40,277 nucleotides of DNA, taken from assembly GCA_016839805.1 (NCBI GenBank), contig JAEOTO010000041.1, positions 1-40,277 on the forward strand, given 5' to 3'. Both the position numbers and the translations under genes were made by a program. Below are positions 1,622 through 40,277 of this stretch, in pieces (positions within the stretch are counted from its first letter, which is position 1; every line of letters begins with the position of its first letter). Source of the stretch: Candidatus Hermodarchaeota archaeon. Its GTDB lineage: Archaea > Asgardarchaeota > Hermodarchaeia > Hermodarchaeales > Hermodarchaeaceae. The notes beneath the pieces are model-generated. The model was not told the DNA's origin, searched no databases, and was given only the letters and a program-made list of their open reading frames with translations.

Positions 1622-1993
1622 CTATTCTTGAGGGTTTTCTTCCGAAGTTGTTATATTAATATCATTCAAGAGTTTTTGGGCGCTTTCAATATCTGCCCTG
1701 ATAAGTTCATCGATGACCTCTTCAGTGATGTCTTCATTAGTCGCTTCGATGATGACACGTCCCCAATATCCACATTTGGGACACCGATATTTGGGTGGGG
1801 TGATGCCCATGGCACCTCCTATGTCATACCAGGTTTCTCGGCTCCGGAGGGCGGGGGATTTGCATTGGGGACAAATGCGAATGGTGATGATTTTTCCTTC
1901 CTTCTTGAGGTCACCAAGTACTTGCATAAGTTGTTTAATGATCTCATCACTAGAAAGTGCATTAGAAGGTGAGGTTGATGAGTTGGGGGCCAT
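1622..1993 (-). CDS. Zn-ribbon hypothetical protein
   Basis: CPQC...CPKC pair; co-oriented with neighbours. Confidence 0.75.
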   Translation of the reverse strand: MAPNSSTSPSNALSSDEIIKQLMQVLGDLKKEGKIITIRICPQCKSPALRSRETWYDIGGAMGITPPKYRCPKCGYWGRVIIEATNEDITEEVIDELIRADIESAQKLLNDINITTSEENPQE

Positions 1994-2089
1994 TGATATA
2001 TTCAGCTCAATTAGGGTCCTCGAGGAAGGGAATTGAAGGGTCTTGATGAAGCTAGATAAGGACAGGCTTTTTTGCTTTGCGGCAGTGGC

Positions 2090-2473
2090 TCACCATTTGA
2101 CGTCTTCGACGAGTTGGGAGACTGTATTACAGAATGGACAAGTTAGAGTGATGGCACCGGTCCCGCGATCATAGGCAATATCATCGCGGCTGGGGGTTCC
2201 TCCGCATTTGGGGCAGGTGACTTGAGAGACATCGAAGTCACGGGGAAGATCGATATGGGCTTCGACGACGACGCGTTGTGGTTCACGTTGTCCGAAATAA
2301 CCCAAGATAATAGCAATAATGATGGATACTCCTGTCGCGCCAAATAGCATGATAGCCGTCATTTGGTTTGCAGCAATGTTACCTTCTGTTGCGATCATAA
2401 ACATGAAGCCGAAGAAGCCTGCTATAATAGCAATGATGGCAAAGAGAATAGCAATGCAGGTATAAGCTCTCAT
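2090..2473 (-). CDS. Two-TM membrane protein with C-terminal Zn ribbon
   Basis: Two hydrophobic helices, then CPKC...CPFC. Confidence 0.8.
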   Translation of the reverse strand: MRAYTCIAILFAIIAIIAGFFGFMFMIATEGNIAANQMTAIMLFGATGVSIIIAIILGYFGQREPQRVVVEAHIDLPRDFDVSQVTCPKCGGTPSRDDIAYDRGTGAITLTCPFCNTVSQLVEDVKW

Positions 2474-2591
2474 ATGAAACCGTTTAGAAGTTTACACCTT
2501 TTATCCTTTCGTGTTCATTTCTGCTCCTTTTAAGAACGGGAAGAGGTGGTTTTTTAGGCAGTTGTGTAGGGGTGAGTATGGGTGTTGTAGA

Positions 2592-3254
2592 ATGCCTCGG
2601 TTGCAAGTTGCGTTGGACTTTGAGAAGCTTGATAAAGCCCTTGAGATCGCAGGACAGGTTGCACCCTATGTTGATATTATGGAGGCAGGAACCCCATTAA
2701 TTAAAGCGGAGGGAATGGAAGCGGTTAAAGCCCTCAAAAAAGCACATCCAAAGAAGTTGGTTTGCGCAGATTTGAAGACCGCAGATGCGGGATATTTAGA
2801 GGTTAGAATGGCAGCACAGGCTTCAGCAGATATTGTGACCGTTTTAGCTGATGCCTATAATGAGACACTAATTGGCGCCTTAAAAGCGGCTCATGAGTTT
2901 CAAGTTGAAGTTATGGCAGATTTAATCGTATCACGAATTCCTATAAGCAGATTAGCGGACATTATAGGACTCGCATATAAAGGCACGGAGATTCACTATG
3001 CCTGTGTGCATAGTGGGTTGGATCGGCGAGCGACACGTCGTGGCCCATTATTAGAATTGGATTCAGTATCGCGTTTACGTGGACATCCCCGGCTTGCTGT
3101 GGCCGGAGGGATTCGTGTAGCAGATTTAGCCCATATTTTGGACTATCCTGTGGATATCATAATTGCTGGCGGTGGAATTTCTAAATCAAAGAATCCAGCT
3201 CGTTCTGCAAAAGCGTTTCATCAGGCTATACAGAAGCTTTCTAAGAAAAAGTGA
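2592..3254 (+). CDS. hxlA: 3-hexulose-6-phosphate synthase / OMPDC-HUMPS family protein
   Basis: LQVALD, EAGTPLIKAEG, ADLKTADAG, AVAGGI motifs; start placed at ATG 2592. Confidence 0.8.
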   Translation: MPRLQVALDFEKLDKALEIAGQVAPYVDIMEAGTPLIKAEGMEAVKALKKAHPKKLVCADLKTADAGYLEVRMAAQASADIVTVLADAYNETLIGALKAAHEFQVEVMADLIVSRIPISRLADIIGLAYKGTEIHYACVHSGLDRRATRRGPLLELDSVSRLRGHPRLAVAGGIRVADLAHILDYPVDIIIAGGGISKSKNPARSAKAFHQAIQKLSKKK

Positions 3255-3275
3255 TCGTAGCCTTCTTGAAGCTTA

Positions 3276-5015
3276 TTACTTGTCATCAATCCATGCGAAT
3301 TTGCGTTGTAGCGTTTTGGGATAGAAGTCTTTCCAATCATAGTCGATTTGGTGTCCCCAGTCCCGGTAGATGCGGGGATCAATATAGGATTTAAGGCTAG
3401 TGCCAAGATTCCATGTACGTGTTTTTTTAGCGATATCGATTTGCGCGTTGAGTTTATCTTTCGCTTCACGTGCACGGCTCAACCGTTGTTTGGCTGTGTC
3501 AACACTCTTTCGCGCCGAAGCAACTGAGGATGTATAAGGGCGGTTTTTTCCACGTGGAATCGGTTTGCCCTGTTGTTGTAACTGATTAAGCTTAGCTTTT
3601 TGTTTACTAACGAGCTCCTTTAGCCGATTTTGTCGTTTCTCGAGATTATCTTTGGCTTTGGCGATTCGTTCATTTGCCCGTCGTTGACGTTCTCGGAAGC
3701 GTTGCATGCGGTTTGACCACCCTTTGGGAGCTTGTTTGGTATGATTGCAGACTATGGCCGCTTGGAGGTTGGCTCGTTTAGCTTGGTTTTTCTTCACCCA
3801 ATTTGGATCCGCAACATTTACCTTGGCACGACTCAGATATTTGCGGACGGTGCTGCTAGCGTGATACGTTCGAAAAACTTTCGCAGTTAGTCCCGGCATG
3901 ATTTCATTAAGATAAGCGTTTACATTGCGGCTGCGGACATTTGGAAATATTTGTGGACGGTCCCGGCTTGGGTGGCTTCGACCCTGTTGGTTGCTCCTTC
4001 GGGGGGTCTGGGCATTGTCAATGAGGTGTCGTAATTCTTCGACTACATCAGGGGGCAACTTCACCGTTTTATGCCAGGGTACCGAATCCTTGCCTAAAAA
4101 CCTGAATTCAACTTCTCCATTCTCTTTGATGGTAACATGTTCGGGTCTAAGCGTTGTAGCGCCGACTGTGTCGGCTTCATCCGGATCCTTTTCATCGCCC
4201 ACCCGTAGACTCAGTACATCAATTAGATAGCAGGCTGTGGCAATCTGTCGGCGCCGAGATTGTTTGGCTTGCATATCAGCATTTATTGCGCGACGAACTG
4301 AGCTAATGCGTTTAGCCATTTGCTGGGCGACTTCAAATTTTTGAGCTTCGCGATCCTGTTTAATGGATGCTGTATCGGAGACCCAGACATATTTCATTTT
4401 TCCAGAGAGTCGATCTTCCCATCGTGCCACCCATAGACTATCGGGTTGCCAGACCCGTCCTGCCCACTGACCGGGAGGCATTGGCGCATCAGGGCTCAAA
4501 TTCAATGTGATATCTTCTTCTCGAGGACCTGGTTTCCATCTACCACGTAGAGGATGTTTCCCTCGACCCATGAAGATACAGCTAGGTTCCGCTGTCCAAT
4601 TCGCAATTTCAACCCGTTCGTCATCAATGACTGCATATCCGTATTGTTTTCTCAACGCTTCTCGAAGTTCCTTCCGCTTAGTGGTTAAGGCTTTACGTTC
4701 CTCTTTGGTCAGCGCTTCTTTCTGCTGCTGTTCTTTTTCTCGACGGGTGATTCCTTGACGGAAGAACTCCTCTAAGTCTATCTCGTCAGGTTTTATGGCG
4801 GGTTTTACACCAAGTACTTTACTAAAATCTTTCAAGAAGTTACGGACAAAGATCCGATCTTCCCAGTATCCCAGGTGTCGTTTAGCAACAAAAGCCATGG
4901 CCATTTCCTCTTGAAGAGCATTTAGCACTAGCTCTTTGCCACGAACCGTGAGCACCATCTCAATTGGTGATGGTAGTTCGATGACACGTATGCCATTATG
5001 AACCAGCCGTTGCAT
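3276..5015 (-). CDS. top1: DNA topoisomerase IB (eukaryote-like)
   Basis: Catalytic set LRVG(D)EKD, FLGKDS, AKVFRTY, CNH, SLKSYIDPR; GRGKHPLRG motif; coiled-coil linker. Confidence 0.95.
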   Translation of the reverse strand: MQRLVHNGIRVIELPSPIEMVLTVRGKELVLNALQEEMAMAFVAKRHLGYWEDRIFVRNFLKDFSKVLGVKPAIKPDEIDLEEFFRQGITRREKEQQQKEALTKEERKALTTKRKELREALRKQYGYAVIDDERVEIANWTAEPSCIFMGRGKHPLRGRWKPGPREEDITLNLSPDAPMPPGQWAGRVWQPDSLWVARWEDRLSGKMKYVWVSDTASIKQDREAQKFEVAQQMAKRISSVRRAINADMQAKQSRRRQIATACYLIDVLSLRVGDEKDPDEADTVGATTLRPEHVTIKENGEVEFRFLGKDSVPWHKTVKLPPDVVEELRHLIDNAQTPRRSNQQGRSHPSRDRPQIFPNVRSRNVNAYLNEIMPGLTAKVFRTYHASSTVRKYLSRAKVNVADPNWVKKNQAKRANLQAAIVCNHTKQAPKGWSNRMQRFRERQRRANERIAKAKDNLEKRQNRLKELVSKQKAKLNQLQQQGKPIPRGKNRPYTSSVASARKSVDTAKQRLSRAREAKDKLNAQIDIAKKTRTWNLGTSLKSYIDPRIYRDWGHQIDYDWKDFYPKTLQRKFAWIDDK

Positions 5016-34511: not shown

Positions 34512-34808
34512 ATCAATAACCTTGAACGAAATTACTGATCTGGAATCTAAAAACGTCGTAACCCACGGACCAACCCGCAAAAACAAGTTAGCAGCCAAGG
34601 GCCCAATGCCTTTTCAATAAACAGACCAGGGGAGCAATTCACGAAACCCCTTATATATCTACCCCGTCATGTCGCTAATCCAGAAAGCAACCAGCAACTA
34701 GAGAAGCCGCGATGAATCACACCAGCACCCTCTCAGGAATAAGTTATACCTCTGATTCATCCATTAAGGAAACCAACCAGAGAATACGCCAAGGAGATTC
34801 CGAGCATC

Positions 34809-35297
34809 ATGTCCGAGGAAAGACTTTGTATTTTCATTGATGGCGGAAACGTCTTCCACGCCGCCAATACCCTAAAGATCCACGTTGACTTAGCCAAACT
34901 CGTCACCGCCTTAACAGCTAACCGAACACTCATTCGAGCCTACTATTACGACGCTACCTCGAACACCCCTGCACAACAACGCTTCTTTGATAAACTACGC
35001 CACCTAGGATTCGCCGTGAAGACCCTCCCACTCCGCCAATACCAAGGAACCCCTTTTGAGAAAGGCATCGACGTCATGCTCGTCACCGACATGCTCACAC
35101 TCGCCCACACCAACACCTACGACACCGCCCTCCTCGTCTCCGGCGACAAAGACTTCACCTACACCCTCCAAAAACTCAAAACCCTCGGCAAAACCATCGA
35201 AGTCGCCGCCTTCACCCACGCCCTCGCCACCGAACTCCAACACGCCGCAGACAACACCATCCTCCTCGACCACCTGATACCCAAAATCAAGTTGTAA
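34809..35297 (+). CDS. NYN domain (LabA/DUF88, PIN-fold) protein
   Basis: IFIDGGN, EKGIDVML..D, LVSGDKDF. Confidence 0.92.
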   Translation: MSEERLCIFIDGGNVFHAANTLKIHVDLAKLVTALTANRTLIRAYYYDATSNTPAQQRFFDKLRHLGFAVKTLPLRQYQGTPFEKGIDVMLVTDMLTLAHTNTYDTALLVSGDKDFTYTLQKLKTLGKTIEVAAFTHALATELQHAADNTILLDHLIPKIKL

Positions 35298-35355: not shown

Positions 35356-35409
35356 TTAGAAGCACCGATGGGCCACGCCAGCGCCCTGCTCCACATATTC
35401 CTTTTTTGT
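35356..35409 (-). repeat. Displaced actin 3'-end, copy 4 (TKKEYVEQGAGVAHRCF*)
   Basis: Direct repeat of actin exon 3; 8 synonymous codon changes, plus M>V and I>A. Confidence 0.9.
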
Positions 35410-35468
35410 TGAAACGCGTTTGATTCATAAGGTAGTATGGAATAGTAATGTGAATAGAGGTTGGGTTT

Positions 35469-35729
35469 ATGTCCGAACAAGTGATGAACACACCAGTTGG
35501 AAAGGTCACCAACTATTACGCAAAAATCAATGTCGCCGTCATCGAATTATCCGCCCCATTGAAGAAAGGTGATGAAATCGCCATCAAGGGCGCAACCACA
35601 GAGTTCACCCAAACCGTGGAATCCATGCAAATCGAACGCGAAGACATTGAATCCGCACAATCAGGCCAAGCCATCGGATTAAAAGTCAAAGAACGGGTGC
35701 GGATAGGCGATACCGTCTATCGCATTTAA
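35469..35729 (+). CDS. Translation-elongation-factor-like small beta-barrel protein
   Basis: VGKVTNYYAKINVA...LKKGDEI.IKG.TT.F.Q.VESMQIE...VRIGD.VY. Confidence 0.85.
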   Translation: MSEQVMNTPVGKVTNYYAKINVAVIELSAPLKKGDEIAIKGATTEFTQTVESMQIEREDIESAQSGQAIGLKVKERVRIGDTVYRI

Positions 35730-35805
35730 TGGATACACAGAAGACCTTTGATTACTACTTATCGTCCTACCTCGCTGTCGTTACCAAATCTGCAAAGCAT
35801 GGGGG

Positions 35806-36228
35806 TTAGAGGGTTAACCCTCCAATCTGGCGCAAAAAGTTTGCCACATCGATGAGCTGCCAAAACTCCGCGAGTTTCTCTTCTTCGAACCGGTACAAGT
35901 TGAAGCTACTGAACTTGATTTTCTTTCCAGTAGGGGCGATGCCCTGGAACTCACCTTGATGCGTCCCAGTAACGGTAATACGCATCGCCGCGCGATCCTC
36001 TGTGGCGAAAAGATCTTCAATTGTCACATGAACGTCAGGGAGCGCTTTCAGCACTAGTTGCATAAAATCACCAACTTCCTCACGTCCCTTCACATCCACG
36101 AAAGCACCTGCCAAATCGTGCCGAACGAAACCAGATGTAACCAACCGAGGAACCACTGTTAAATCCCGATCATTGAACGCCTGAATAATTCTTCTAATAA
36201 CCGCCATATTCTCTTCTGCTGTCACCAA
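35806..36228 (-). CDS. SnoaL-like ester cyclase (NTF2-like)
   Basis: ALPDVHVTIED, GTHQGEFQGIAPTGKKI. Confidence 0.9.
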   Translation of the reverse strand: MVTAEENMAVIRRIIQAFNDRDLTVVPRLVTSGFVRHDLAGAFVDVKGREEVGDFMQLVLKALPDVHVTIEDLFATEDRAAMRITVTGTHQGEFQGIAPTGKKIKFSSFNLYRFEEEKLAEFWQLIDVANFLRQIGGLTL

Positions 36229-36324
36229 ACAACCTCCAACCCCATATCACCCAACCAATAACATATCAGCCTACCGATTAATCCCCTCACACGCAAATTA
36301 GAATCAAAGTTCTTGAAATTAGTG

Positions 36325-36369
36325 AAAAAGAAACCAAAAAAGAGAGAAAATGGGAGGACAAGCCTCCCA
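36325..36369 (-). terminator. Hairpin plus U-tract after actin 3'-end copy 3
   Basis: TGGGAGG-CTTGT-CCTCCCA then a T-rich tract. Confidence 0.7.
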
Positions 36370-36385: not shown

Positions 36386-36445
36386 TTAGAAGCAGCGGTG
36401 GATAACTCCAGCACCCTGCTCCATATATTCTTTCTTTGTCACCCA
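36386..36445 (-). repeat. Displaced actin 3'-end, copy 3 (WVTKKEYMEQGAGVIHRCF*)
   Basis: Peptide identical to exon 3; 6 differences, all synonymous. Confidence 0.93.
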
Positions 36446-36478
36446 TACCTCAGTTTCGCTCAACCAGAAAAAAGAAAG

Positions 36479-36907
36479 CTAGAGGGTGACTTCAGGAGGA
36501 GAGAGGAGAAGGAATAGGTTCCTGGATGGAGTGTCTTGTATTAGTGTCCACGCACTCCAGAACCCTTCTTCCGCAATTATAGCTAGTTGAAATCCTGCAT
36601 GACTTAACTTGAGGAGGTATTCGAGATGACGCACTTGCTGGCTTAACACCCTCTGCAATTGTGGTGTATAGTCTGAGGAATGTTCGCTGGCAGTTCCCGG
36701 TAAACTCAGCTCGTGAACCCAACTTGGTAAGGATACTTCGATGATAATCTTGATGGTATCTGCCTTCTGTGGGGTATGAGCCAGAAGTACTTGAACCCAA
36801 TCTGTTTCATGGACCAGGACTATCCCTTCGTCCTCATCCTCATCCAATGAAGTCTTTGCTTTGGCACAAAAGTCCTTGCATGCTTGAACAAAGTCTGAAT
36901 ACTTCAT
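36479..36907 (-). CDS. Hypothetical protein
   Basis: ORF with plausible RBS; no motif recognised. Confidence 0.7.
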   Translation of the reverse strand: MKYSDFVQACKDFCAKAKTSLDEDEDEGIVLVHETDWVQVLLAHTPQKADTIKIIIEVSLPSWVHELSLPGTASEHSSDYTPQLQRVLSQQVRHLEYLLKLSHAGFQLAIIAEEGFWSAWTLIQDTPSRNLFLLLSPPEVTL

Positions 36908-37141
36908 TGCTCTAAGTCCTTCTCTCATTTATCTTCGACCAAGTTTTTCGGTAGCCAGTCAATGTGAGTAGGAGAAGTCAAGTCACCAGATGCAAGAGGG
37001 CAGAAGGTTACATATTAGCTGGTGTGAAATCGCCGATTTACAAAAGTACCCTGCTTTATAAGACGGGTTAACAGAATGTCAACTTAGGAATCTCCCCTTG
37101 TTTTCGAAACAGTGAGCACAATCGAACTGAATCCAACTGCA

Positions 37142-38128
37142 CTATGTTTTGGTATGAGGTTCAGATGTGTTGAATAATTGCGCCCAGAATCGTTCCTTTG
37201 GGCCAGGGTAGAAGTGGTGAGCGTAATAGATAATGGGTCGAACGGACTCAACGCCATCTAGTTCGTTGATGTGGTTGATGATTTGTGGTGAGTAATTTGC
37301 GACTTTGACAAGAAACATGGAAAAAAGAACTGGAGCGGAAGCACTAGCATAAGTAAACCAGTATTCGAGGGGATATTCGCGTTTAAGTACTTCCACAATC
37401 TTACGTCGCTTTTCATCGCCTCCACGGAATGCAATCCGGGCGAGAAAACGTGTCGAGCCACCTTCAGCGACATCATAATCGGGGCATGGATGAAAACATT
37501 GTTGGGTGGTGCGATAGTCTCCGAGGCCTTTTTCATGAAACCATGTTGCTTCTGCGGATCCATTGGTGCCAATAAGATCGGCTAAGAGTTTTCGGACGCG
37601 CCGTTGGGTTAATCGAGTGAGTTGCGCAATTTCATTGACTGACATGCGAACATCCTTTCGAAGGCACCGCAATACTTGGAGATGCATCGATGTGAGGGTA
37701 CATTTCTTTCCTTTTTCAACCAGCAGGGTATGAAATTCAATGTCATTGACCGGTTCCAGTTCATGCAAGAATAAAGTGAGTTCATCTAATTCCTTCGAAC
37801 CAACATAGTCGGCATAAATCATCACATTCCCGTCAGCGAGGAAATTAACTCTATCAATCATCGGATGTGTTCCAAGACGCTCTCGGAACTCTTCACTGGG
37901 AGGAGGGGTTGCGATATTCAGAATGGCTGTACAAAACGAGGCACCCAGCATGGCATAGCTTGGGTAGAGGTAATATCGCCGAATGACGTTGCTGGCTTCA
38001 AGATTCACCACCCGATTGCGTACGGCAGTCACCGATAACTTCAATGCCCTTCCCAAAGCCCGATAGGATGTCCGTGGATTCTCCCCTAACAACAAGAGAA
38101 TCTGTTTGTCGATAAGATCCACTGGCAT
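37142..38128 (-). CDS. Lrp/AsnC-family regulator with tandem wHTH modules
   Basis: DLIDKQILLLLGENPRTSYRALG...AVRNRV and a second LRCLRKDVRMSVNEIA HTH. Confidence 0.85.
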   Translation of the reverse strand: MPVDLIDKQILLLLGENPRTSYRALGRALKLSVTAVRNRVVNLEASNVIRRYYLYPSYAMLGASFCTAILNIATPPPSEEFRERLGTHPMIDRVNFLADGNVMIYADYVGSKELDELTLFLHELEPVNDIEFHTLLVEKGKKCTLTSMHLQVLRCLRKDVRMSVNEIAQLTRLTQRRVRKLLADLIGTNGSAEATWFHEKGLGDYRTTQQCFHPCPDYDVAEGGSTRFLARIAFRGGDEKRRKIVEVLKREYPLEYWFTYASASAPVLFSMFLVKVANYSPQIINHINELDGVESVRPIIYYAHHFYPGPKERFWAQLFNTSEPHTKT

Positions 38129-38245
38129 CCTCACACCTCCCAATGAAATAACCTATACCTTCAAAGAGTAAAAATCCTATGGGTGACCCCTATACCTCGA
38201 ACGCTGTCAGTCGGGAAACCGCTACCGCTTAACCCAGCAAAACCC

Positions 38246-38294: not shown

Positions 38295-38355
38295 TTAGAA
38301 GCACCGGTGAATAACGCCAGCGCCTTGCTCCATATATTCTTTCTTCGTCACTCAC
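38295..38355 (-). repeat. Displaced actin 3'-end, copy 2 (*VTKKEYMEQGAGVIHRCF*)
   Basis: 6 third-position differences from exon 3 (5 synonymous, 1 TGG>TGA). Confidence 0.93.
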
Positions 38356-38649
38356 AATACGAGGGTTGTGTGGTTTTAATTGCCTATTCCTGAAAACCAT
38401 AACGCATAAAAACCAACTAAAACCGGACCCCTTGAGCGAAGAAAAAAACTCAGTGAGACTAAACCTTTGATTCATGATGGCTCAGATTGTATACAGGTTG
38501 ACGAAACAACTACTCAGACTACATATGTTTGTCTGGACACGAACGAGTTATTTTTAGGTTTTCCAATTGTAGGAAAAGTCGATCGCACGAAGGCATTGAA
38601 TATTGCTCGTTGGTTACGCCCAACACAAAATGGGAGACAAACAGTAATC

Positions 38650-39693
38650 ATGAAATCCGCTCCAAGTAAGTTGATTCAGCAGCTAGGAGCAAATAACTAT
38701 GGAAATCAATGGTTTGTTAATTCTGTTAAATTAAATCGGTTCCTGAAAACGAAATTCTTGTTCAAAACGCAGTCAAAGTTAGAATTTCCACTTACGCGAT
38801 ATATCATTGAGTGGATTAAAGCAGGCGTAGATGTAAAGCGAATAGTGTTGCTCCTACTCTTAACAGAAGGTGGTGGGAAAAAATATCGAAACATCTTCTT
38901 CTATAATCGAAACCAATTGTATCACGAGCTTTTAGTCGATTGTATATGGCAACTCACAGAAGAGCTTCCAACGAGCTATATGATACCTAGTAAATACATT
39001 ACTAAAACTGGTGAAATCCGGAACACACCTGATACTGAATATTGGCATAAGAAAATCGTCCAACTAGTCTTTGAACTCAGTCCTTCACTCAAATGTAAGC
39101 CTGCTTTACTTCAAACAAAAACAGCTTATCAAAGCGAAGCCCAACCAAATGGTGAATACCTCCTAAAAGGTACTAAACTAGAAAAGGAGTTAATGGCCCT
39201 CCTTATTATTGGAACAGAAGGATACATCACACCCTTTAATAACCAAAATGGGTTTTGTTCAGCAAATATTGGGTTTAGATGTAGTCACCCAACACTCCTC
39301 CTCCAATTTATCAGAATTTTCAGAGACATCAACATCCACATGACTCTCATCAAGGATAAGAAGAGCTTTTCAAAGCTTGGTGGAGCCCACAATTCTTCTT
39401 ATGATACTGGAAAAAAGATTCTAGAACTAATTAGGAGACACGGAGATCTTCTCGGAACAATTCACGGGAACTCAATCTTTCATGAAGGAGTAAAAAAATC
39501 TAAACTTCTCATCGCTAGTTTAGATTTCTACATAAAACAGAAATCAGGTGCACTTAATCGGAGCATTTCTAGAAAACAGTTACACGAACTTCTTAACCAA
39601 CGAATTGAATCGCAAGCATTAATGCCGATACAGGAAATACTCAAGCACTTAGATCAGAACCCTCGTATCCACCGTAATATCAGAAGCCAATAA
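38650..39693 (+). CDS. Putative free-standing LAGLIDADG homing endonuclease (double motif)
   Basis: Two LAGLIDADG-like helices, VLLLLLTEGGG...IFFYNRNQLYHELL and MALLIIGTEGYI...IGFRCSHPTLLLQFIRIF; AT-rich; ORF open from 38467, ATG 38650 preferred. Confidence 0.7.
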   Translation: MKSAPSKLIQQLGANNYGNQWFVNSVKLNRFLKTKFLFKTQSKLEFPLTRYIIEWIKAGVDVKRIVLLLLLTEGGGKKYRNIFFYNRNQLYHELLVDCIWQLTEELPTSYMIPSKYITKTGEIRNTPDTEYWHKKIVQLVFELSPSLKCKPALLQTKTAYQSEAQPNGEYLLKGTKLEKELMALLIIGTEGYITPFNNQNGFCSANIGFRCSHPTLLLQFIRIFRDINIHMTLIKDKKSFSKLGGAHNSSYDTGKKILELIRRHGDLLGTIHGNSIFHEGVKKSKLLIASLDFYIKQKSGALNRSISRKQLHELLNQRIESQALMPIQEILKHLDQNPRIHRNIRSQ

Positions 39694-39735
39694 AAAAGAG
39701 AAAGGCTGGGTGCGTTCCATTAAGGAAGCACACCC
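39692..39735 (-). terminator. Terminator-like hairpin plus U-tract of the functional actin gene
   Basis: Imperfect GGGTGTGCTTCC-TTAAT-GGAACGCACCC stem followed by CTTTCTCTTTTTT. Confidence 0.55.
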
Positions 39736-39763
39736 GTTCCTTATAGAGGGGTTCACGCAGCGG

Positions 39764-40277
39764 TTAGAAGCACCGGTGAATAACGCCAGCACCCTGCTCC
39801 ATGTACTCTTTCTTGGTCACCCACTTGCGCTGCAACTAGGTCTTCTAATTCCATATACGCTGAAAGGTTTTGAGTGACGCAAGAATTGAGCCCCCGATCC
39901 ACACCGAATACATGCGCTTTCACCCGCATACCATCAAGGTAGGCATCTGGTGGCGCAACAATCTTAACTTCGACGTTTTCGGGGATTTGTTCGATGATTT
40001 CTTTGCGGAGGCGTTCTTTGAGTCCGGGGAACATGGTGGTGCCGCCGGAGAGGACGATGTTGGCGTAGAGGTCGCGTCGGAGGTCGACGTCGCATTTGCG
40101 GACGGCTTCGACGATGGCGTCGTCGAGGGGTTGGGCTTCGACGCCGATGGCGCCTGGATTGAACAAGACTTCGGGGCCTTGGAATCGTTCGGCGCCGACG
40201 GTGAGGGTGGAGCCGTCGGGGAGCATGTATTTCTTTTCCATGCCGGCGACTTTTTCGGCGAGTTTAGTTTCTTTCTC
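39764..40277 (-). CDS. Asgard actin (Lokiactin-type), 5'-partial, spliced: exons 40277-39947, 39918-39855, 39824-39764
   Basis: YMLPDG...GAERF..PEVLFNP...CDVDLRRDLYANIVLSGGTTMFPG...KIVAPP; after removing two BHB introns it continues [41 protein letters not shown]. Confidence 0.95.
39825..39854 (-). other. 30-nt BHB intron 2 in actin mRNA
   Basis: UUCA/UGGG exon helix, GCGU/GCGC central helix, AUA and AAG bulges, AAUUAG/CUAGUU hairpin; splicing gives CGU AU|G UGG; contains an in-frame UAG. Confidence 0.88.
39919..39946 (-). other. 28-nt BHB intron 1 in actin mRNA
   Basis: UGCGC/GCGCA exon helix, CACC/GGUG central helix, AGA and AAA 3-nt bulges, internal hairpin; splicing gives CCA G|AG CGC. 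Confidence 0.9.

Follow-up and report, generated by a model that had tools for sequence, protein, structure and literature searches.

The window analysed here, a 40,277-nt stretch of DNA from a Candidatus Hermodarchaeota archaeon, ends within an actin gene whose last 45 codons are interrupted by two short inserts. Convergent with actin, whose stop codon lies at 39764-39766, runs an intact 408-codon ORF with a TTG start (38467-39693, plus strand); beyond this gene the window holds four displaced copies of the last 19 actin codons, with cargo genes between them. From the actin gene outwards, the features are:

39947-40277, minus strand: 3' part of actin exon 1, the remainder of the gene lying on contig C9
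39919-39946, minus strand: BHB mini-intron 1 (28 nt), which interrupts the E codon of APPE; position identical in 8/8 clade loci, inner hairpin covarying
39855-39918, minus strand: actin exon 2, synonymously recoded; its stems with exons 1 and 3 close both BHB motifs
39825-39854, minus strand: BHB mini-intron 2, of type a and 30 nt long, which splits the M codon of QRM^W 1 nt ahead of the W codon at which tails start
39764-39824, minus strand: actin exon 3, the functional last 19 codons and stop (restored C-terminus)
39694-39763, minus strand: stretch of 3' untranslated sequence containing a hairpin and a T run; its type is confined to the 408-aa endonuclease clade
38467-39693, plus strand: two-motif LAGLIDADG endonuclease gene, 408 aa, free-standing, assigned by fold, motifs and homologues
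38866-38868, plus strand: E134 codon; the residue closes motif helix 1 and is a predicted metal ligand, 49/49 aligned homologues having D or E here
39217-39219, plus strand: E251 codon; the residue closes motif helix 2 and is a predicted metal ligand, 49/49 aligned homologues having D or E here
38363-38426, plus strand: upstream element, conserved with 80-93% identity before both endonuclease lineages and probably a promoter or the end of the module
38295-38356, minus strand: displaced actin tail 1, then an older-type hairpin and T run (to about 38240)
36452-38233, minus strand: cargo cassette 1, with an AsnC/Lrp-type regulator (37142-38143) and a 149-aa ORF (36479-36928)
36386-36445, minus strand: displaced actin tail 2
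35414-36325, both strands: cargo cassette 2, with a SnoaL-like ORF (35806-36228, minus) and an EF-Tu-domain-2-like small ORF (35469-35729, plus)
35356-35409, minus strand: displaced actin tail 3
34809-35297, plus strand: cargo cassette 3, a NYN-domain ORF
34700-34731, minus strand: displaced actin tail 4, degenerate

Excision of the two inserts brings back the conserved actin C-terminus. For each of them one register only gives a 4-bp helix between two 3-nt bulges, the canonical BHB; the fit is perfect for intron 1 at all loci and for types a and b of intron 2, while type c is relaxed (3/4 pairs). Across the loci of the endonuclease clade the introns measure 25-34 nt, and their inner hairpins vary from locus to locus yet keep their pairing, with L020 carrying a compensatory change in the central helix. 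The recoding of exon 2 produces long stems with exons 1 and 3 (-67.9 kcal/mol, z -4.4), and these closing stems pair fully in most intron-bearing alleles (9/9 for the intron 2 stem) and not in intron-less ones. The genome encodes both a splicing endonuclease and RtcB, and we infer that both inserts are spliced from the actin mRNA. A frameshifted alternative actin C-terminus was rejected, since 24 of the 28 variable exon sites among intron-bearing alleles are third positions when read in the spliced frame, and the unspliced frame has no constant end point. We likewise dropped the idea that exon 2 is conserved as DNA-level immunity, because the RNA stems account for its recoding; for the same reason its conservation alone is no proof of recent transfer. 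Just after the stop, intron-bearing alleles share a short conserved stretch (39753-39763, minus strand), which gives the unspliced frame of types a and c a stop. The 219 nt at the contig end (40059-40277) are shared with contig C9 of this genome (G000 C9:1-219) except for 12 mismatches, all synonymous, of which 10 form a cluster. The assembly was probably interrupted here by the presence of two actin alleles, and many related assemblies likewise end within actin.

The 408-aa ORF lies outside both inserts and between exon 3 and the nearest displaced tail (38295-38356), so that the initial annotation, which had described a free-standing LAGLIDADG-like gene convergent with actin, beside ORF-less introns and AT-richer than its surroundings, was right about the layout; its GC content is 37.7% against 43.8% for the genome, a value as low being found in 1.7% of equal-length genome windows. 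As a lone query the protein gave no match in Pfam and PDB sequence searches. A profile search recovered about 100 homologues, LAGLIDADG_3 was matched by 43 of 77 of them, and a 91%-identical protein has been deposited under Candidatus Hermodarchaeota. The AlphaFold2 model built from a 77-row alignment (pLDDT 94.9, pTM 0.92) places helices at residues 123-134 and 237-251, each with a T-E-G end and each followed by a strand-strand-helix-strand-strand-helix succession, as had been guessed from the letters alone; the single chain thus contains the two alpha-beta-beta-alpha-beta-beta-alpha domains of a two-motif LAGLIDADG protein. A wide structure search with this model returned LAGLIDADG folds at all of ranks 1-22, with Z scores of 10-15 for ranks 1-14 and the first unrelated match at Z 4.0, which settles the fold that structure prediction had been proposed to check. 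The matches comprise WhiA, intein and archaeal intron enzymes and span residues of about 110-400, the LAGLIDADG core. An earlier alignment of 6 rows had given a model of low confidence (pLDDT 65), which still matched LAGLIDADG folds in 50/50 Foldseek rows. Residues 1-110 form a beta-rich N-terminal domain for which no fold match was obtained, the leads from an Atlas search all scoring below 0.9.

An acidic residue stands directly before the motif glycine in both motifs of all 49 aligned homologues, as in LAGLIDADG enzymes, and judged by its sequence the 408-aa protein is most likely catalytically competent. Within its clade dN/dS is 0.08-0.19. Some endonuclease gene copies are broken, by a stop in L141 and G005 and by a frameshift in L021; purifying selection together with occasional broken copies fits the usual life cycle of homing genes. 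We consider it highly probable that the protein is a homing-type nuclease directed at the actin end. WhiA is a domesticated LAGLIDADG protein without the catalytic acidic residues. It is by a small margin the top structural match (Z 15.3 against 14.6), which, with the strict association with introns, might suggest a vertically inherited, domesticated WhiA-like DNA-binding regulator, or a splicing helper for intron-bearing actin. We hold this to be very improbable: both acidic residues are kept throughout the homologues, the gene is absent from most relatives, the associated actin block crosses host lineages, no such gene adjoins the actin introns of other Asgard archaea, and the loci with broken enzyme copies, L141 and L021, nevertheless keep both introns. 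The last observation excludes a needed maturase role and is neutral on intron immunity.

Wherever flanking DNA is available for a member of the 408-aa clade, the gene converges on the actin stop. Both introns and the recoded exon 2 are present at all eight distinct clade loci (the window, L001, L004, L020, L021, L140, L141 and L144), which belong to three host lineages. A different LAGLIDADG protein (377 aa, 23% identical) occupies the same slot behind actin in five same-genus relatives, and there actin is intron-less in 5/5 loci. The co-occurrence of introns and gene that the initial annotation had put forward as a check is therefore found, as one phylogenetic contrast of enzyme clade against clade and not as 13 independent points. 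In G016, L032 and L033 actin is intron-less and no family endonuclease follows its stop, L032 and L033 being short contigs. In a quick tree the 408-aa and 377-aa lineages are not sisters. They nevertheless have in common an upstream element of about 60 nt, 80-93% identical, which implies that one of the two genes took the other's place in its module; the element was found neither elsewhere in the arrays or the genome nor in viral contigs. A further gene of the 377-aa type, found at L175 (about 700-1907), is frameshifted and accompanied by its small upstream ORFs; it lies away from actin and has no tails.

The suggestion that introns and enzyme spread together stands in so far as all eight loci carry both, and is weakened by the behaviour of intron 2. 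Intron 1 sits at a single site throughout, while intron 2 comes in three types (a, b and c, at positions 83, 80 and 82) that do not follow the enzyme tree, enzymes 90% identical to each other being found with types a and b. Intron 2 turns over independently of the 408-aa enzyme. BHB-like inserts also occur in the actins of three other Asgard families, of 34 nt in L156 (G019), 31 nt in L155 (G130) and 31 and 30 nt in L163 (G180), at sites 32, 41, 80 and about 102, one of them exactly at the type b site; within 6-10 kb of these no family endonuclease and no displaced tails were found, and intron position alone thus demands no endonuclease partner. In all, actin 3' introns were seen in at least 4 of 354 Asgard genomes. 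A protein search with the unspliced actin frame found no intron-bearing actins, known positives being missed too, and the DNA pattern of intron 1 gave four matches in genome contigs, all unrelated, bacterial and attributable to chance.

These observations bear on a rival reading in which the enzyme homes to the actin end, the introns come from a high background gain of BHB introns in this lineage and merely lie inside the copied tract, and protection is provided by recoding or by regulation of the enzyme. The 377-aa lineage manages without an intron, the introns of G019, G130 and G180 have no nearby family endonuclease (one even matching the type b site exactly), and the type of intron 2 is not tied to the enzyme. 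We still regard this reading as somewhat unlikely, because no clade member lacks either intron or has an empty second site although enzyme identity falls to 44%, all three types of intron 2 lie within 3 nt of one another at the edge of the displaced tails, and actin 3' introns were seen in few Asgard genomes.

The actin gene itself is a mosaic. In the block from APPE to FQ, synonymous-codon identity is 57-100% among intron-bearing alleles and 10-38% between these and intron-less ones. Upstream of APPE the alleles follow the host: L020 groups with the intron-less G016 with 100% support, and L140 shares residues with the intron-less L033; within the main genus the DNA tree of this part gives no resolution. 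The discordance between block and host means either that the block crossed host lineages or that intron-less ends replaced it several times, and on these sequences either history would need horizontal conversion. The functional actin end is accordingly of other ancestry than the core of the gene, a result partly confounded by selection on RNA structure and by codon bias.

The displaced tails record earlier actin ends. Besides the window, L001, L004 and L142 have the old actin 3' end displaced past the endonuclease gene, and in L027 a displaced tail is followed by what is left of an older endonuclease gene. Related arrays yielded 54 tail matches (about 50 distinct), whose starts fall between model positions 77 and 113 and, for 21 matches, between 77 and 85. 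Their edge falls at about QRM^W, where all three types of intron 2 are found. None of the 54 matches reaches exon 2, bar one poor alignment at 69, none of the about 50 distinct tails begins at intron 1, and no intron-type 3' end was found among the displaced tails of related arrays. The proposal that introns and enzyme are partners at this slot thus holds in part: tails start at or just after QRM^W, while the slot is intron-less in five relatives and three families with introns lack the enzyme. The edge is also expected from the intron-less 377-aa lineage and could be entirely its work, so that it does not pinpoint the site of the 408-aa enzyme.

The same cassettes recur at different positions in related arrays; cargo cassette 1, for example, is also fifth in the array of G014. 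In L001 (610-1257) and L027 (about 1900-3880, reversed) the first tail is separated from the upstream element by cargo genes, an arrangement from which new cassettes may originate. A decayed actin tail with a hairpin on another contig of the genome (L029 6290-6349 reversed; G000 C38:2590-2708) is probably a detached piece of the array. Displaced actin tails between cargo genes are also seen in other Asgard lineages (L044, L045, L046 and L053, longer in the last), and these loci gave no match to the 408-aa endonuclease family. Members of the family are associated with a duplicated 3' end of a 3-hydroxyacyl-CoA dehydrogenase-like gene (L111 24-87 and 1869-1932, from a relative in another family), a duplicated 5' end of a zinc-ribbon gene (L127 556-604 and 2696-2744) and an end duplication near the start of an RNA polymerase subunit (L122 2459-2619). 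An integron driven by an integrase was rejected, the protein having a nuclease fold and no integrase being present among the ORFs examined at 34-40 kb.

A further possibility assigns the two introns to two enzymes. The 408-aa enzyme would cut at or near intron 1 (APPE), which would be its partner, and intron 2 would shield the allele against the commoner 377-aa cutter at QRM^W, the rival gene being swapped out by recombination in the shared upstream element. Intron 1 is invariant and the shared block starts there, the upstream element is common to unrelated enzymes, the interval from the 408-aa gene to tail 1 retains no trace of a rival, and none of the displaced ends is of the intron type. 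Against this, no displaced tail begins at intron 1 or within exon 2, and the BHB stems also require the left edge of the recoding; the sole hint of a cut at APPE is the invariance of intron 1 within the clade. We judge this arrangement decidedly unlikely, an assessment that overlaps with the one given below for intron immunity.

The account we prefer, with a probability of roughly 0.6 for the whole, is that the 408-aa gene drives a mobile module by which the actin end is replaced, the introns travelling with it. The module consists of intron 1, the recoded exon 2, intron 2, the last 19 codons, the terminator, the convergent endonuclease gene and the upstream element. Its layout, intron co-occurrence and mosaic ancestry, and the fold, intact motifs and purifying selection of its nuclease, are observed. 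We propose that actin alleles lacking introns are cut by the 408-aa enzyme somewhere in their last 45 codons, with the neighbourhood of QRM^W as the likeliest place, and that repair would rely on upstream actin homology to the left of the break and, to its right, on either a displaced tail or the upstream element common to both lineages. The recipient would acquire a new actin end, both introns and the endonuclease gene, and would displace its old actin end, or else the rival endonuclease would be swapped out of the slot; the host splicing endonuclease and RtcB would take the introns out of the mRNA. Taking the whole replacement 3' end as the mobile unit, a point absent from the initial annotation, explains the displaced actin copies. 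In the 377-aa lineage, which occupies the slot without introns, the functional actin tail often does not differ from the first displaced one near the edge; as regards self-protection in this slot, that weighs against the account.

Once such a module moves, the introns necessarily ride along. Whether they also do service there is a separate matter: that an intron, at either site, shields the donor allele from the 408-aa enzyme, as in collaborative homing, is a tentative proposal to which we give slightly less than even odds. The same degree of reserve applies to the fuller scheme in which a free-standing endonuclease spreads tRNA-type introns into Asgard actin, the introns protect, and a second endonuclease competes for the slot.

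The closest parallel is found in fungal mitochondria, where endonuclease ORFs (mORFs) carry a foreign C-terminus, as in atp6 of Allomyces macrogynus and atp6, atp9, cox2 and nad3 of Glomus (PMC3630166). As in those, a free-standing LAGLIDADG gene adjoins a newly acquired 3' end of a conserved gene, one that differs at synonymous sites, and the former end lies farther out, past the endonuclease gene. The actin module differs in being archaeal and chromosomal, in having an endonuclease that is convergent rather than co-oriented or fused, in carrying an end with two BHB mRNA introns, and in its many tails alternating with cargo genes and its two unrelated enzymes in one slot. Collaborative homing has been described in T7-like phages and a cyanophage and requires cleavage at the intron site (PMC2988022, PMC10448857). 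The actin locus resembles it in that an ORF-less intron in a conserved gene and an adjoining free-standing endonuclease are found together; the phage systems have self-splicing group I introns and a cut mapped to the insertion site, whereas here there are two protein-spliced BHB introns of 25-34 nt. With the LAGLIDADG enzymes of archaeal rRNA introns (I-DmoI, I-Tsp061I, I-Vdi141I) the 408-aa protein shares the fold (Z 13.7 with I-Tsp061I, 10.8 with I-DmoI) and the association with BHB introns; ORFs of the I-DmoI type lie inside rRNA introns, and this ORF lies outside both introns, on the other strand and behind a protein gene. A BHB intron is described in the cbf5 pre-mRNA of Crenarchaeota (PMC2738675), and a passage on it in another source presents cbf5 as the only example in a coding sequence (PMC7714728). 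The passages on cbf5 in these sources describe no neighbouring endonuclease; in actin there are two introns, and recoding of an exon builds the long closing stems. Our literature search found no paper describing this actin module.

The locus bears on the way in which very small introns spliced by proteins get into archaeal protein genes and spread there, since here they lie inside a selfish-nuclease module on an Asgard actin gene, with a second, intron-linked enzyme lineage as the addition made by this locus. The last 45 actin codons in this group can differ in history from the rest of the gene, and annotation pipelines give the wrong actin C-terminus here. Intron-less, intron-bearing and recoded alleles, together with two rival enzymes, are available as natural material. 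If collaborative homing does operate at this site, its introns would be mRNA mini-introns spliced by proteins and its host a cellular archaeon, a relative of the eukaryotes, and it would provide a concrete route for the gain and fixation of introns in an essential Asgard protein gene.
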